Shown piece after piece: positions 13,652 through 63,011 of a stretch of DNA of 64,000 nt. This DNA comes from Candidatus Saccharimonadales bacterium (lineage in GTDB: Bacteria > Patescibacteriota > Saccharimonadia > Saccharimonadales > UBA10212): the NCBI GenBank assembly GCA_035758565.1, contig DASTXL010000002.1, positions 275,118 to 339,117 of the forward strand. The letters are read 5' to 3'. The translations under genes were made by a program, and so were the position numbers. Position 1 is the stretch's first letter. Every line of letters starts with the position of its first letter. The notes under the pieces were generated by a model that saw nothing but the letters and a program-made list of their open reading frames with translations, made no database searches and was not told where the DNA came from.

Positions 13652-14338
<687 letters not shown>

Positions 14339-25717: not shown

Positions 25718-25901
25718 GATTTAAGTATAGCGCTTTAAGAGGTTTTTGATAGTTAGCCAAACCGCTCATGCTATTGATATTTTAAGGTGATTATGTTAAA
25801 ATATAGTTGGTTTCAGGCAAGTGTTATTGTTTAAAGCAAGAGCAAGTCTGGGATAGAACCCTGATCACCTTAGCGGTGGTCGCGAATTCGAGGAGGAATC
25901 C

Positions 25902-26372
25902 GTGAGTTATTCGCACGAGCTGCTGACGGCCGTGTACCTGACCCTGTTGGTTGGGGCGGTTTGCAACACCTGTTACGTCGTCGAGAAGGTACGCGACACG
26001 CTGCTCAGCCACTGGAGCACGGGCCTGCAGAAGGCGGCCCGGCTGCTCGGCCAGCTGTCGTTCTGGTTCGTGCTCTCGCCCACCTGCGTGGCTGCCGGCC
26101 TGATGGCCGGCAAGGAGATCTCGCCGAACCAGTTCCCGAACACGACGTTCTGGAACAGCTACCCCACCTGGCACAGCCTGCGGGCCATGCTCGGTGGGTC
26201 GCTCCTGCTGGCCACGCTGGCGATGTGCATCGCGCTCATCTTGCGCGAGTACGTCAACTCGCCGCGCTACAACGCGCTCATGGCGGAGCGACGCCGGAAG
26301 CGCCAGCAGCGGGAGCGGTTCTCGTCCCGCGTCGAGCTGCCCGCCGACTTCATCCCCGGCTACCCGGCCTAG
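25902..26372 (+). CDS. hypothetical membrane protein encoded in a high-GC island
   Basis: GTG start 5 nt after AGGAGG. Nearly all codons end in G/C, 3-4 hydrophobic segments, GC-rich hairpin after the stop. Confidence 0.6.
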   Translation: MSYSHELLTAVYLTLLVGAVCNTCYVVEKVRDTLLSHWSTGLQKAARLLGQLSFWFVLSPTCVAAGLMAGKEISPNQFPNTTFWNSYPTWHSLRAMLGGSLLLATLAMCIALILREYVNSPRYNALMAERRRKRQQRERFSSRVELPADFIPGYPA

Positions 26373-26540
26373 GTCCTCCCCCGCACACGCCCAGCATGTC
26401 TCTGGCGAGACATGGTGCAGCGGCTCGTTCACTCGAGCCGTTCTGGGCCCTTCCCAAGGTTCATCAAGTTTTGGTGGCTCTTGGAAAGTAAACTGCTACT
26501 GCTTGCTCTTTATGGTTCGCTTAAATACAATCACTCACAA

Positions 26541-27866
26541 ATGAAGCGTCCGAGGATATTCTCTTGGGTGGTAGCGGTGGTTTTATTAAGTTCGGTGCTT
26601 ATACCTGGCAACGCATTTGCCACTGGATCGTCCCTATCAATACGAGAGATAAAGATAACCGACGATGAGTTTGTAATTATACAGAACACCGGTAACAACG
26701 ATATTGATCACCTAAGTGATTATTGGTTAGGGTACGTAGGCAGCGATACAAGCATGGCACCCCCTGTTCAGGATTTGCCGGACTACCGGCTACCATCAGG
26801 CGGGGTAGTTTTACTTAGCGGCGGCGGGACAGTTAATACCTGCGATGCCGACATAGTAAGCGACCTGTCGCCGTCACTCAGTGACAGCAAAGGCACACTC
26901 AACCTTTGGGAGCAAACGTCGAGCGGCTTTAGCCTACTATCGGGCAACCAAGCCCAAGTACGCTGGAATAAATCCACCTCCTCTGACGTTAACCTTAGTG
27001 AAGAGACCAGCCAATATGCTAACCCGGTGTGGTTTTACGATACTTCAAGCGGCTGGCTCTTGACTGATATGTCTGGTTGCACACTGACTACTTACAACGG
27101 CTCAACCAGTACGACTGCGGCAGTTTGGCCAGAGAACGATTCCAGCCCGCCGGCTATTATTGAAAGCGTTGCTGAAGGTCAGGGTTTGGTTGGCTTACCG
27201 GCTGCTGATATTGGCTTAAAAGCTCCGCAAATCAGTGAGCTTTTGCCCAACCCATCTGGCAGTGGCACAGATGATACGGATGAGTTTATAGAACTTTACA
27301 ATCCTAACGATACTGCCTTCGATCTTTCGGGTTTTGCCTTAGAGACTGGTTTGACCACCAAACATAAATATTCTTTTGAAGACAGCACGCTTTTGCCAGC
27401 TAAAAGCTTCACGGCGTTTTACTCAGCCGATACTGGGCTAACGTTGAGCAATACTTCAAGCCAGGCGATTTTGCTAGATCCTCTGGGCACTACGATTAGT
27501 CAATCCGACGCCTATAGCTCTGCTAAAGACGGCATGTCTTGGGCGCTGGCTAACGGCAAATGGTATTGGACTAACGCGCCAACGCCTGGTGCTACTAATG
27601 TAGTCAACCAAGCGTCGCCTGATTCATCTAAGGCTAACAAATCTTCGGCTCCAACTGTAAAAGGACTTTCCACGGGTAGTTCAAACTCAGCGCCTAATAG
27701 CTTTAGTAACACTACAATCGTGTCTACGCCCATACACGCTTGGACGCTTGCTGGGGTTGGTGCTGCCGCGTTACTATATGCTGGCTATGAGTACCGTAAT
27801 GACTTGGCAAACAACCTCTACCGCGTCCGACGATACATCGCGGCTCGGCGAGCTGCTAGGAAATAA
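26541..27866 (+). CDS. secreted, C-terminally membrane-anchored protein with a lamin-tail-domain (LTD) motif
   Basis: Signal peptide MKRPRIFSWVVAVVLLSSVLIPGNAFA; LTD motif ISELLPNPSGSGTDDTDEFIELYNPND; C-terminal TM plus basic tail. Confidence 0.6.
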   Translation: MKRPRIFSWVVAVVLLSSVLIPGNAFATGSSLSIREIKITDDEFVIIQNTGNNDIDHLSDYWLGYVGSDTSMAPPVQDLPDYRLPSGGVVLLSGGGTVNTCDADIVSDLSPSLSDSKGTLNLWEQTSSGFSLLSGNQAQVRWNKSTSSDVNLSEETSQYANPVWFYDTSSGWLLTDMSGCTLTTYNGSTSTTAAVWPENDSSPPAIIESVAEGQGLVGLPAADIGLKAPQISELLPNPSGSGTDDTDEFIELYNPNDTAFDLSGFALETGLTTKHKYSFEDSTLLPAKSFTAFYSADTGLTLSNTSSQAILLDPLGTTISQSDAYSSAKDGMSWALANGKWYWTNAPTPGATNVVNQASPDSSKANKSSAPTVKGLSTGSSNSAPNSFSNTTIVSTPIHAWTLAGVGAAALLYAGYEYRNDLANNLYRVRRYIAARRAARK

Positions 27867-47489: not shown

Positions 47490-48851
47490 CTACGCTGGTA
47501 AGGCCATAACGGCCTTTTTAAATTGATTACCTCGATCTTTATAATCTTTGAACAAGCCAAAACTCGAACAGCCAGTAGATAGCAGTACTATGTCACCGGC
47601 GTGAGCTCGGGCCTGGGCTTCGGCAACTATCTCAGGCATAGTGGTCAGTCCCTCGGTAATATTGGTGAAACCTCGATCGCGGAGGAGCTTGGCAATTTTT
47701 GGAGCTGTCATGCCGATAGCTATGACATGGCGGACGTTACTTTTAGTAACTGCTCGAGCCATTTCGTCGAACGAGGAGCCCTTATCATGGCCGCCCAAAA
47801 CCATGATTTTAGGTTCAGAAAAAGCCTGCATAGCCACAATAGCCGTATCTGGGGTGGTGCCAAAAGAATCATCATAATAGCGAACACCTTCGAGATCACG
47901 CACAAACTCTAGGCGGTGCTCTAAGCCAGTGAATGAAGCTAATATTCGCCGAACAGCATCTAGGTTATCGGTGACTTGCAAAACAGTGGTTACGGCCGCG
48001 CAAATATTCTGAAGATTGTGCGCACCCAATAACTTAACATCTTCTTTATTAATGATTTTGGTCTTGCCTCCGTCAGAAACAATATCGCTACCGCTATCTA
48101 CGAAAACGCCAGGCGGATGAAAATAAGGAATTTTATGCCCGGGCGAGTAGGCGGCAATCTTCGCGCTCAGCTTGTTATTGGGGAAGAATATAGCAATATC
48201 ATCGGATTTTTGATGACGGAAAATATTAGATTTGGCCTCTACGTAATCATCTATGTCGTGATGCCACTCCAGGTGCTCCGGTGTAATCATCAGGCATACG
48301 GCTATATGAGGGCTATAGGGGAATTTATACAGCTGGAAATTAGCCAGCTCCAGCACCACCCAGTCGTCTGATTTAACTTCTTTCACGAAGTCTAAAACAG
48401 GTCGGCCGACATTGCCGCCAAAATGAACCGATTTGCCGGCGGCTTCAAGCATTCGAGTAATTAAGGTAGAAGTCGTGCCTTTGCCCTTGGTGCCGGTAAC
48501 ACCTATAACATTTTTGGTGGCTACTGTTTCAAAGAAGATGTGCTGGTTGGTGGTGGCTTTTTGCCAAAACGAATGGTCATCTGGAAACAGCTTCTCTAAA
48601 TTCTTACGTGCTACAGGGGTGTATACGATTTTGTCGCAATTTTCTATATCATTTAAGTAACTTAAATCAGAGATATTGCCGGTGAGGCCCGGTGGCCTGC
48701 CCCCGCTCAGGTACTTAACCTTAATCTTGGCCGATTCTTCAGGAAAATCATCAAGAGGTGTCTCGTTAACAATCAAATACTCATGATTCGGGCCAAAATA
48801 ATTAAAGGCGCTTTTTCCCTCTAAGCCCCAACCGACAATACCGATCTTCAT
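47490..48851 (-). CDS. murD: UDP-N-acetylmuramoylalanine--D-glutamate ligase
   Basis: GVTGTKGKGTT P-loop, Mur ligase middle and C-terminal domains. Confidence 0.85.
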   Translation of the reverse strand: MKIGIVGWGLEGKSAFNYFGPNHEYLIVNETPLDDFPEESAKIKVKYLSGGRPPGLTGNISDLSYLNDIENCDKIVYTPVARKNLEKLFPDDHSFWQKATTNQHIFFETVATKNVIGVTGTKGKGTTSTLITRMLEAAGKSVHFGGNVGRPVLDFVKEVKSDDWVVLELANFQLYKFPYSPHIAVCLMITPEHLEWHHDIDDYVEAKSNIFRHQKSDDIAIFFPNNKLSAKIAAYSPGHKIPYFHPPGVFVDSGSDIVSDGGKTKIINKEDVKLLGAHNLQNICAAVTTVLQVTDNLDAVRRILASFTGLEHRLEFVRDLEGVRYYDDSFGTTPDTAIVAMQAFSEPKIMVLGGHDKGSSFDEMARAVTKSNVRHVIAIGMTAPKIAKLLRDRGFTNITEGLTTMPEIVAEAQARAHAGDIVLLSTGCSSFGLFKDYKDRGNQFKKAVMALPA

Positions 48852-48940
48852 ATGTATTCCAATGTTAACCCTAATATCTTAGCTTAGTCTAGTTAAGACT
48901 CTTATGCTTGCCAACAAATACTGGTTGCTATACTCTAATT

Positions 48941-49597
48941 CTTGGCAAAAAAGTCGTAGCTATGAAGCTCCTTAACGCCAGTTGAGCGCACGGAAACCCC
49001 GTTCGCAGCTCCTTAAGGAATCGGACTAAAAAATTCAGCGCGGGGGAGGTAGCTTTGCGGGCAGTTAAGAGCCGTGGAGCCTAACGTCGTAGACACCAAC
49101 CACACGCTGATGTAGCAGAGTAGGGCTCGCAACCCGGATCTCTGCTCCTCGGAGGGGCGACAGCTAACTTTCTGACTTTCTACGCCCGTCAGGGACAGGA
49201 GAATGATCAGTAGTGGGCTCGGTCGCCCCTCCAAAGGCTTAAAATTCCTTCCGGTAGGGGGTGAACTGACGGCATCAGTGACCCCCGAAAGACCCTGTCG
49301 GAGGGGATCTTCCTCGATGGGGCGGTTCTGTGGCGTTCCCTCCAGAGCTGCTGCTTGAAGGGACATCGAGGAAGCGCCGCGGTTCGTGGACGGGAGCTGA
49401 CGCCACTCTCGTCCGCGACCGCGGTCTATAATTCGAGCTAGAGCTCGAGCAAGACCGCAGGTCGGCTGTAGCGAAAGCGACAGGGGATCAGACCCCTCCA
49501 CCTGCTTCGTCAACGCTCGCCGGCCTGCGGCTCCAACCGTGAAACTAAAGTCCGATTCCTTTCTTCACACCACCCTATCAGGGTGGATCTTTGATTT
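48941..49597. ncRNA. candidate large structured noncoding RNA (or a long structured leader of murD); identity unknown
   Basis: GC-rich with no credible ORF and many local hairpins. 13-bp long-range helix (49015-49027 with 49549-49561). Extended -10 TGcTATACT at 48926-48934 and a + strand hairpin plus U-rich tract at 49570-49597. Confidence 0.35.
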
Positions 49598-49680
49598 ATA
49601 GACCGCTTAACGCTTGTGCTTCATACTTAAAAGTGGTGAAAACTATTGACATATTTTAGTGCTTGTGGTAAAGTATTGAC

Positions 49681-49866
49681 ATCCTCGCTTCTTAGGCGAT
49701 GAGGTGGAAATCTCTACGAGGCAATAAGGGCAACTTTAGAGCTTCGGAAGCCTTCGGCGGGTGAGGTGCAAGCTTAACAAATCGGATCATGAGAGTTCAG
49801 CTTGAACTCTGCCGCCAAGTTAATAAAAACGTTCAAGAGCTTATATATCGTAAGCTCCGTTTTTGT
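49681..49866 (+). ncRNA. candidate small RNA (promoter-to-terminator unit of ~185 nt)
   Basis: TTGACA-17-TAAAGT at 49646-49674; intrinsic terminator gagcttatatatcgtaagctc plus T-run at 49837-49865; no ORF. Confidence 0.3.
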
Positions 49867-50051
49867 ATTTGGCGGTTGTTTAGCTAGAGCTAACTTTTCG
49901 CATACATTTTAAGGGTCACCAAGTAGAGCTAGCGTTACAGACGATAAATAATTGTCGTTTGTAGCGCTAGCTCTCCACTCCGGAGCGCAAGCAAAAGAGT
50001 GCGGTGACCGGGCCCGGTCACCGCACTGTTCATTCGACCAGGAGGTGCACG

Positions 50052-51287
50052 ATGGGCCACAAGTTGCACAGCATCAAGAGGTCCGCGGCCATCACCCTGG
50101 CCGTCGCGATCCTCGCCGTTCTCGGAGCCGTCGTCGCCATCGAGGCGCCGACGTCGCACGCTGCGACGGCCTCGGCCGCCCCGGCGTCCGCTCAGCACGT
50201 GATGGACTCCACGTGTCCGGTGCAGTTCGCTGCGCCGATCTACACCTGCGAGATCCAGCCGGTCGGGGTCAAGACGAACAAGTCGTCGAGCTCGACCTCC
50301 CACGTGCACGTCACGACGAAGAAGAACACCACCGTGACTCTCACGATGGTGAAGCGGTACGAGAAGATCAAGCACGTCCGCGTCGCCATCAACGGCGGCG
50401 CTCCCGTCAAGACGGGCTGCGTCGACCCGACGAAGATCAAGTCGTGGAACTTCCACGACGGCGACTCCTTCTACAACGCCGACAAGTTCCACCGCGAGCT
50501 CCCGGACACCTGGGAGAGCGGCTGGGAGATCTGCGGCGCCCATCCCGTGCGCAACTGGCACGGGCACCCCGGCCTGTACGAGGTGGGCAAGAAGAAAAAC
50601 TGCCGCAACACGCCGATCGCCATTCCGATCCAGGAGCAGGAGATCGCCGTGCCGCAGAAGGTCGTCGAGATGACGAAGACGCAGTTCGTGTCGAACTTCG
50701 ACCGCGTCGTCAAGAAGTCATCGACCTCGACCAGCACGAAGGACGTCGAGTACTACTGCCGCACCGCCGGGTACAACCCCGGCGTGGTGAACGGTCGCGA
50801 GGTCTGCTACCACGTGGTGCAGATCCCGGTCGGCACCACGCCGACGACTCCGACGGGCACGATCGTGTGCAGCAACATCGGCAACAACAACGGTGGCAAC
50901 TGCAACACGAACACGACGACGACCGTGGTGACCACCACCACGACAACGCCGTCGCAGTCGCCGAGCTGCACGCTCAACCTGGCCGAGAGCAAGGGCAACC
51001 AGAACGCTCAGGCCTCGGTCAACACGACCGGCGGTTCGGCCACCTTCGTCCAGTTCACCTGGGGCGACGGGGCGACGGACCAGGGTTCGTTCGTGTCGGC
51101 GACGCACACCTACGCGACGCCGGCTCCGGCTCCCGCCGGGACGTACGTGACCTACACGATCACCGCTCGCGCGGTGATCGGCGGCAACTGGTTCGACTGC
51201 GGTCACCGCGACTACAAGGTCGCGGCACCGCCGACGAACCCGACGGGGACCAACCCCGACGGGCCTCCCGGTCTGCCGAACGGCTAG
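50052..51287 (+). CDS. secreted Cys-rich protein with a C-terminal PKD-like domain, encoded in a high-GC island
   Basis: AGGAGG RBS 6 nt upstream. Signal peptide ending SHA|AT; FTWGDGATD...HTYATP...GTYVTYTITAR PKD-like motif. About 9 in 10 codons end in G/C. Confidence 0.65.
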   Translation: MGHKLHSIKRSAAITLAVAILAVLGAVVAIEAPTSHAATASAAPASAQHVMDSTCPVQFAAPIYTCEIQPVGVKTNKSSSSTSHVHVTTKKNTTVTLTMVKRYEKIKHVRVAINGGAPVKTGCVDPTKIKSWNFHDGDSFYNADKFHRELPDTWESGWEICGAHPVRNWHGHPGLYEVGKKKNCRNTPIAIPIQEQEIAVPQKVVEMTKTQFVSNFDRVVKKSSTSTSTKDVEYYCRTAGYNPGVVNGREVCYHVVQIPVGTTPTTPTGTIVCSNIGNNNGGNCNTNTTTTVVTTTTTTPSQSPSCTLNLAESKGNQNAQASVNTTGGSATFVQFTWGDGATDQGSFVSATHTYATPAPAPAGTYVTYTITARAVIGGNWFDCGHRDYKVAAPPTNPTGTNPDGPPGLPNG

Positions 51288-62620: not shown

Positions 62621-63011
62621 GGGGCTGATTTAAGCTCGACGATCGGACATTAACAAATTTAGATGGCAGGTCGGTAAAGCACTGAACGTTATCCGGTGCA
62701 AGCCAATAACTGGCAACAAACTTACAGCTGCTATCGACAGCGTTCTCGCTAGTCGCCAGCCAGCTTACGCAGCCTAATTTAGGTTGCCATCGGCTATTTT
62801 GACGCCAGATAGAAGTATCAGCCGGTGTCATATCATCTGGACGCTCTGAAGCTTTCGGTAATCCGCCGAAGCTTTAGCTAAGATTTCCTGGATTGCCACC
62901 AAGGTTTTTTGACCGTTTCAAGCCTTGGTTTAAGTATCCAAACGGCCTAAGCCTGTAGTCATCAAATTTGTTACCAATCGGACGCGGGGGCAGTACCCGC
63001 CAGCTCCACCA
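62621..63011 (+). ncRNA. ssrA: tmRNA (SsrA)
   Basis: 5' GGGGCTGATTT, 3' GGACGCGGG..CCCGCCAGCTCCACCA, G3:U70. Internal reading frame ends ...ASRQPAYAA-TAA (stop 62775-62777); terminator at 63016-63045. Confidence 0.85.

Follow-up and report, generated by a model that had tools for sequence, protein, structure and literature searches.

A probable stand-alone non-coding RNA gene of about 650 nt, from an uncatalogued family, in a clade of Saccharimonadales

Structured bacterial RNAs of more than 500 nt without a known function are rare, and OLE, ROOL, GOLLD and raiA each opened new biology, including RNA-only nanocages. ROOL, GOLLD and OLE are homo-oligomeric RNA assemblies (PMC12286853). We examined a stretch of 64,000 nucleotides from a Candidatus Saccharimonadales bacterium (hereafter the window), in which positions 48941-49597 of the plus strand probably constitute a stand-alone gene for a non-coding RNA (ncRNA) of ~650 nt, a member of an uncatalogued family in a clade of Saccharimonadales. 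Like ROOL, GOLLD and OLE, the element belongs to a size class of ~0.5-0.8 kb and has a predicted many-armed, GC-rich fold that stands out in a genome of lower GC. Saccharibacteria are part of the Candidate Phyla Radiation (CPR), whose members have tiny genomes with little spare DNA; retention of a non-coding gene of 0.5-0.7 kb would thus imply a real cost and benefit. A search of the open-access literature found no large structured RNA of such kind described for the CPR.

The element differs from its surroundings in composition and in folding. GC content is 0.55-0.63 across 48950-49550, compared with 0.41-0.45 in the flanks and 0.478 over the whole window. Inverted-repeat search and minimum free energy (MFE) folding both identify a perfect 13-bp long-range helix, P1, in which AAGGAATCGGACT at 49015-49027 pairs with AGTCCGATTCCTT at 49549-49561 (on the plus strand, 5' strand AAGGAAUCGGACU and 3' strand AGUCCGAUUCCUU), leaving 521 nt between the arms. 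By our own estimate, the chance expectation of a perfect 13-mer inverted repeat in 1.25 kb is ~0.01. In the MFE fold of 49005-49600, P1 closes a multi-way junction with eight arms, H1-H8, and the plus strand reaches -278.3 kcal/mol against -222.6 +/- 7.3 in 100 dinucleotide-preserving shuffles (z = -7.67). H1 (49035-49110) is a three-way junction with two hairpins, H2 (49114-49146) a hairpin with the loop CUCGCAA, and H3 (49147-49237) a long hairpin, CCUC GGAGGGGCGAC ... GUCGCCCCUCC AAAGG. H4 (49244-49308) carries the loop motif ACUGACGGCAUC at 49265-49276, H5 (49309-49374) pairs cuuccucgaug with caucgaggaag, H6 (49376-49425) is a long GC-rich hairpin, H7 (49432-49449) a short one, uucgagc uaga gcucgag, and H8 (49452-49532) reads ccgcaggucggc ... 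gccggccugcgg. All eight arms are plus-strand features of the MFE fold, and H3, H5 and H8 were also found as inverted repeats. An earlier note, made from the letters alone, had described a GC-rich stretch with dense nested hairpins closed by a 13-bp helix, and the GC profile, the perfect pairing of P1 and the eight-arm fold, with an energy far under the shuffles, agree with it. Most of the hairpins that it named also stand: the MFE fold contains cgtggacgggag/ctctcgtccgcg as well as ttcgagc/gctcgag, and cttcctcgatg/catcgaggaag is a perfect 11-bp pairing. The hairpin ctgtagc-GAAA-gcgacag is doubtful, with an A.G mismatch, a place outside the MFE fold and no conservation in the sister strain L018.

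Signals for transcription lie on either side of the fold. A promoter-like site read from the sequence at 48908-48934 (+) combines TTGCCA (48908-48913), a 15-nt spacer and the extended -10 TGcTATACT (48926-48934), which implies a start of transcription near 48941. A simple sigma-70 scan missed this site because of its short spacer. At the other end a terminator scan reports an intrinsic terminator at 49570-49597 (+), with the hairpin CCACCCU-AUC-AGGGUGG followed by a U-rich tract that is weak and interrupted. Both the extended -10 and the terminator are present as the earlier note had given them. The 5' part of the transcript ahead of P1 (48941-49014, +) is predicted to form two hairpins (~48942-48981 and 48984-49011; RNAalifold on the window and L018), and a repeat search of this part finds a 10-nt direct repeat, AGCTCCTTAA, at 48966-48975 and 49007-49016 (+). 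The second copy of the repeat extends into P1, and CUCCUU resembles an anti-Shine-Dalgarno sequence.

The sister strain L018 (Logan SRR12170513) is syntenic with the window. Identity between the two is 81.6% in the coding sequence of the neighbouring murD gene, 81% in the 5' part of the RNA, 98.7% from P1 to H3, 65.5% with indels over H5-H8 and 99.5% in the leader downstream of the element, and H4 is deleted from L018 (61 nt). The mosaic may reflect either extreme purifying selection on P1-H3 and the leader or recent recombination with breakpoints inside the RNA gene. The fold of L018 follows the same plan (z = -6.2), with a 14-bp P1, identical H1-H3, no H4 and other hairpins at H5-H8; a different long hairpin substitutes for H6 at the same position, and a different short hairpin stands at the position of H7. 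RNAalifold on this pair of sequences shows at least 11 base pairs altered on both sides. Compensatory changes fall in H5, and in H8 an A-U pair of the window becomes G-C in L018.

The promoter and leader downstream of the element are conserved across lineages and were therefore used as a probe for related loci. Scanning a metagenome collection with the leader motif GGTARAGTATNNNCATCCTCGCTTC yielded 22 loci, about half of which contain a GC-rich block of 460-730 nt directly 5' of the leader promoter. The loci bearing the element sort into seven sequence groups: A (the window, L018), B (L030, L032, L049, L045), C (L020 = L021 = L039), D (L046), E (L034 = L040), and F (L036) and G (L037), each of the last two with its 5' end cut. 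L050 was left out, as its GC-rich block contains an open reading frame (ORF) with a signal peptide and folds better on the minus strand. Sequence search does not detect the diverged groups: an nhmmer search with the element, run over all loci and the remainder of the window, returned only the identical copy L001 and L018. What recurs in the seven groups is the architecture. Complete copies have a promoter-like site, a 5' hairpin region, a closing helix that spans 463-719 nt, 5-10 arms and a plus-strand terminator. The sequence of P1 is AAGGAATCGGACT in group A, GACAAGTCT(G) in B, AGATCAGT in C, AATTTAAG, extended in the fold, in D and GGAATTACC in E; it starts with GGAAU in groups A, C and E and contains AAGUCUGAU in B and D. 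We conclude that the RNA very likely recurs, strongly diverged, at the same locus in related soil Saccharibacteria.

Group C illustrates how much of the plan is retained. In L020/L021 (murD 69% identical) a GC-rich block of 730 nt occupies the same location and is followed by a terminator; its P1, GGAAUUAGAUCAG/CUGAUCUUCUUCC, has two internal mismatches, and the first three arms match H1-H3 in order and topology, with similar loops. The H1 counterpart of L020 has the matching topology and a different sequence, with an identical GUA loop on the small hairpin. Its H2 counterpart is 35 nt long with the loop CUCCAAA, and its H3 counterpart reads CCUU..GGAGGG...CCCUCCGAAGG, with the similar apex CCCGU(C/A)AGG. 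Arms H2-H3 of the window and of L020 aligned too poorly in MAFFT for a cross-group covariance model. Groups A, C and E share the 12-mer ACUGACGGCAUC, which lies in an arm, and a hairpin loop of group B contains CCUGACGGCGAC. Within group B, L032 and L049 are 93% identical at the 5' side, 100% identical at the 3' side and unalignable between; arms appear to be gained, lost or replaced between close strains.

The predicted ends of the transcript recur likewise. Plus-strand promoter-like sites are present in the groups with an intact 5' end, of the TTGCTATACT type in A, C and D, TTGTAC-17-TATAAT in B and gTTATAAT in E; TTGCTATAC(T/G)C is retained in L018 and L020, and TTGCTTTACTC in L046. A hairpin and T-run on the plus strand stand at the matching relative position in every related copy, 50-60 nt before the leader promoter, and these terminators are strong in most copies. 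About half of the related loci lack the element itself. In L019 and L051/L052 an ORF of 130-162 aa takes its place, and in some others 150-450 nt separate the end of a kinase gene from the leader promoter. Homologues of murD at 65-74% identity are partly without the element (L019, L022-L026, L051-L055), and the murD relatives reached by a genome scan, only 49% identical, are without it.

Pairing is kept where sequence is not. For group B (4 sequences, 73-96% identical) RNAalifold gives 177 pairs; in 21, both sides have changed and the partners still pair. The corresponding count in column shuffles is 9.5 +/- 2.2, with 0 of 500 reaching 21, and sliding the 3' partners by 1-3 columns leaves 2-7; the share of paired cells is 94%, versus 37-49% when slid. 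The closing helix covaries between groups, as groups A-E have different P1 sequences at the same location, and the signal of group B is consistent with this. On these alignments, helices appear to be preserved by compensatory changes while the primary sequence drifts beyond alignability. The copies also bear on the strand. In each of the nine complete copies the plus strand has the lower MFE, by 6-55 kcal/mol, and the two truncated copies behave likewise, which makes seven groups of seven. In the second hairpin of the 5' part, an A-U pair changes to G-U between the window and L018, and H8 contains a U-G wobble; each is a valid pair only on the plus strand. Since these G-U pairs would be C-A mismatches on the minus strand, the plus strand is favoured. 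The plus-strand unit of the earlier note, running from the extended -10 to the terminator, is thus supported by plus-strand terminators in all copies and by the greater stability of that strand in 7/7 groups.

We found no described RNA family and no protein in the element. A cmscan against Rfam 15 at the gathering score gave no match in 48800-50050 of the window; at E<=10 the element gave only chance matches (skipping-rope and miRNA models), and ARAGORN reported nothing in it. Eleven related loci likewise matched no family, under gathering and permissive cut-offs alike. No covariance model of ROOL, GOLLD, OLE (RF03087, RF01998 and RF01071), HEARO or raiA matched. The earlier note could not place the element in RNase P, transfer-messenger RNA (tmRNA), signal recognition particle RNA, the introns or a riboswitch class, and the Rfam 15 scan leads to the same result. 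No tmRNA, an RNA with a tRNA-like domain and a tag frame, was found in the element, and the tmRNA of the window lies elsewhere, at 62621-63011 (+, Rfam, 88 bits; not reported by ARAGORN). The window also contains 12 tRNAs. No group I or group II intron model matches at E<=10, and the element lies between genes and has a promoter-like site and a terminator of its own. As for a riboswitch or cis-acting leader, the terminator at 49570-49597 and the promoter at 49646-49674 intervene before the next gene, no core is conserved across groups and no riboswitch model matches; rapid sequence turnover together with the lack of a conserved junction core argues against a ribozyme or riboswitch. Among the hairpin loops of the 11 copies no motif recurs within a single molecule, as it would in a CsrB-like sponge, which argues against a Csr-type sponge, and optional presence argues against a housekeeping RNA. 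In sequence, the element has features of a generic stand-alone small RNA, namely a promoter and a terminator (both predicted), covarying structure and no conserved ORF.

Pfam gives no match for the sole long ORF in the element (49013-49513, minus strand, 166 aa). Its single relative among 5.8 billion sequence clusters and 1.84 billion cluster representatives, P0001, is a spurious, frame-broken ORF on the L018 copy of the element, and the 61-nt indel between the window and L018 breaks any frame. No reading frame is conserved among the copies, the stop-free frames of the seven groups show no similarity to each other in any frame, and neither translated nor nucleotide comparison links the element to the neighbouring GC-rich genes. 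These results confirm the view of the earlier note that the gap between murD and the GC-rich gene holds no credible gene and that its ORF does not look like a protein. They also fit its proposal of a large structured ncRNA of an unlisted class, given that no Rfam family matches and that architecture seems to be kept through compensatory changes. As judged from the sequences, the element represents a previously uncatalogued large ncRNA family, absent from Rfam.

That a real family of plus-strand structured ncRNAs is present at these loci we hold to be highly probable, and the narrower reading of 48941-49597 as a stand-alone gene of such a family a little less so. Several points weigh against this. 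The comparative set is small (11 copies, 7 groups), and the alignment between groups uses architecture, synteny and short motifs only. The shuffle control for the 21 both-side changes of group B ignores phylogeny, and the structure comes from the same alignment. Promoter, transcript ends and RNA stability were all derived from sequence, and the -10 hexamer of L018, TATACG, is a weaker match. Absence from about half of the related loci shows that the element is dispensable. Neither a junction core conserved across groups, as in a ribozyme or riboswitch, nor a loop motif recurrent in the 11 copies, as in a protein sponge, was found. Finally, the locus is a divergence hotspot, and its GC richness could partly reflect processes linked to recombination instead of selection acting on the RNA.

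A role in cis is the main rival; each of the four other alternatives taken up below is contradicted by several tests. The element would then be an upstream module, in the form of a conditional long leader or of a transcription unit, and not an RNA acting in trans. By read-through of its terminator, or by transcriptional interference or insulation, it would modulate the strong promoter ~50 nt downstream. This promoter, near-consensus TTGACA-17-TAAAGT with TG (49646-49674, +; promoter scan, conserved across lineages), precedes a leader of ~370 nt (49683-50051, +) and the GC-rich gene of a secreted protein with a signal peptide (50052-51287, +). The leader is a neighbour and not part of the RNA, so that the 1-kb gap of the earlier note does contain the ncRNA (~48941-49597) but is not a single feature, a separate promoter and leader filling 49646-50051. 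The promoter and leader, in the same orientation, are the constant downstream neighbour in all seven groups and the only element constantly linked to the RNA; upstream, murD is found in groups A, C and D, a sensor histidine kinase in B and E, and other genes elsewhere. This arrangement, with a terminator 50-60 nt ahead of the -35 and, in the window, a weak and interrupted U-tract, is what a cis-acting module might look like. However, terminators are strong in most copies, the gene downstream is served by a near-consensus promoter of its own, with the same leader present even in loci without the element, and a P1-closed, multi-arm fold of 500-700 nt exceeds the needs of an insulator or attenuator. 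Complementarity between the element and the downstream leader gives z between -2 and +1 (RNAduplex). We regard a cis-acting module as unlikely, while ranking it above every other rival.

A second alternative is that the element is a non-functional GC-rich remnant, a decaying piece left by GC-biased gene conversion and cassette exchange at a recombination hotspot, its hairpins being by-products of composition. The secreted-protein gene next to it, the first gene after the leader in L019-L050 too, has a GC content of 0.61-0.68 in every related locus, in genomes of ~0.45-0.48 GC, and is very divergent and mosaic between lineages; the element is optional, and its identity to L018 is itself a mosaic. 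Yet both the window and L018 fold far below dinucleotide shuffles, five groups retain a closing helix at one location despite its differing sequence, and both-side pair changes are in excess in group B. Promoter-like sites and terminators are preserved across groups, and the element has no translated or nucleotide likeness to the neighbouring genes. A remnant is therefore very unlikely. The high-GC island named in the earlier note is this secreted-protein gene, and its GC richness in every locus indicates a stable property of the locus and not a one-off horizontal transfer.

The perfect 13-bp P1 and the presence/absence polymorphism at a single site could also suggest a miniature inverted-repeat transposable element (MITE), with P1 as terminal inverted repeats, inserted 5' of the promoter. 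Ends recognised by a transposase are conserved, whereas the inverted repeats here are wholly different between groups. The element occurs once in the 64-kb window and at no second site in the related loci, no target-site duplication surrounds P1, and the promoter and terminator lie outside the repeats. The element thus has neither the conserved ends nor the duplication nor the multiple copies of a MITE or insertion-sequence remnant. A blastn search of the element against phage and plasmid collections gave no match, and viral contigs scanned with the promoter motif and with the P1 motif gave chance matches only. We consider such an origin highly improbable.

Even less can be said for the option, raised in the earlier note, of a long structured 5' leader of murD (47490-48851, minus strand) transcribed from the minus strand. 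The element does lie upstream of murD in groups A, C and D, and its minus strand also folds well (z = -7.81). But murD is either 5-8 kb distant or missing from the contig in groups B and E, response-regulator genes lie immediately upstream of those murD homologues that are 65-66% identical, the minus strand is the less stable in 7/7 groups, the terminators are all on the plus strand, and a murD promoter-like site at 48914-48886 intervenes between the element and murD; we set this option aside as scarcely credible. The same negligible chance is left to a protein-coding gene or pseudogene, for although long stop-free minus-strand frames occur in several groups, such frames are expected at 60% GC, and the 166-aa ORF has no Pfam domain, no conserved frame and only the one frame-broken relative in L018.

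The surroundings of the RNA have features of their own. The leader of the secreted-protein gene is ~300-450 nt long across loci, and its motifs are strongly conserved in 19 distinct lineages: a 5' hairpin CAUCCUCGCUUC...GCGAWGAGGUGGA, then GGCGGGUGAGGUG...CUUAACAA. Two GAGGUG segments could pair alternatively with CAUCCUC. The motifs of 49646-50051 have no Rfam match, and the region is a candidate for a new cis-regulatory 5' untranslated region. A conserved GCTTGTGCTT box stands 25-35 nt 5' of the leader's -35 and could be the binding site of a regulator. For the secreted protein of the window, a search of 5.8 billion sequence clusters gave essentially no homologue, and searches of Pfam and the PDB with the neighbouring proteins and the 130/162-aa ORFs gave nothing above threshold. 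The locus looks like an expression site for a hypervariable surface protein. In many lineages, among them L029, L033, L034, L045 and L023-L026, the genes flanking it include response regulators and a sensor histidine kinase (HisKA/HATPase, the long forms being 7TM). In L019 (3268-3660) and L051 (2400-2888), an ORF without a Pfam match lies between murD and the leader promoter, on the strand opposite to murD; by eye, the two proteins have a short ...LFAR... stretch in common.

Two further GC-rich stretches of the window were noted. The block at 25830-26430 (+) reaches a GC content of 0.69, folds with z = -4.3, contains CUGACGGC and lies 5' of the gene of a secreted LTD-domain protein (26544-27866). 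It also contains a 156-aa ORF with three hydrophobic segments and a strong ribosome-binding site, GAGGAGG, and is probably a protein gene. At 13652-14338 (-) a GC-rich gene encodes a secreted protein with LysM and transglycosylase-like (Rpf-type) domains, a combination typical of Actinobacteria that would fit gene flow from actinobacterial hosts.

How the RNA might act can be outlined tentatively. Its terminal hairpins and P1 would give a compact, nuclease-resistant molecule that may act in trans as an architectural or protein-binding scaffold, with a specificity that would come from a small number of conserved unpaired segments, the ACUGACGGCAUC loop for example, and with a function connected to the adjacent variable cell-surface locus. 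Self-assembly like that of ROOL, GOLLD and OLE would be possible. A trans-acting scaffold is our leading idea of mechanism, speculative and rated well below even odds. More doubtful still, and a shade below the cis-acting module, is a modular, fast-diversifying 'ornate' RNA of episymbiotic Saccharibacteria, whose arms would be swapped along with the hypervariable surface-protein gene. If that were true, the RNA would be part of a system of host-range, phage-resistance or cell-surface variation, and a higher-order RNA or ribonucleoprotein particle, compare ROOL and GOLLD, would be possible. The interest of the element lies in its unusual evolution, in which architecture appears conserved and sequence nearly unconstrained, with arms swapped or lost between close strains, and in its tight linkage to a highly conserved promoter and leader that would drive a hypervariable secreted protein. 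Should transcription and folding be confirmed, it would offer a testable handle on cell-surface variation in uncultivated epibionts and a new target for RNA structure determination.

Comparison with known systems places the element near several of them. Long 5' leaders of surface-layer genes resemble the locus as a whole, in that a strong promoter and a long conserved leader precede the gene of a secreted or surface protein; this likeness fits the neighbouring leader at 49683-50051, and the element is set apart from it by the terminator and promoter. Like RNase P RNA, the element has a P1 that joins its two ends by pairing and encloses a core of several helices, with peripheral helices that vary by lineage. 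Unlike RNase P RNA, it matches no covariance model and lacks a universally conserved P4-type core, and it is missing from L019, L051 and about half of the leader-bearing loci; an essential RNA could not be lacking in about half of the close relatives. With CsrB and RsmZ it shares a promoter and intrinsic terminator of its own, an array of hairpins, a varying number of hairpins and fast evolution. In contrast to them, it has no repeated loop motif (e.g. GGA), its arms are long and GC-rich, and a closing helix, which Csr-type RNAs do not have, encloses those arms. From ROOL, GOLLD and OLE the element differs in having no covariance-model match at E<=10, in the phylum of its host, in the lack of prophage or tRNA linkage in the window and related loci and of OLE-associated protein genes nearby, and in a much weaker conservation of primary sequence, with arms swapped or lost between close strains. 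What it shares with these three, besides size and a many-armed GC-rich fold, is the apparent organisation as a stand-alone gene with a narrow range of lineages.

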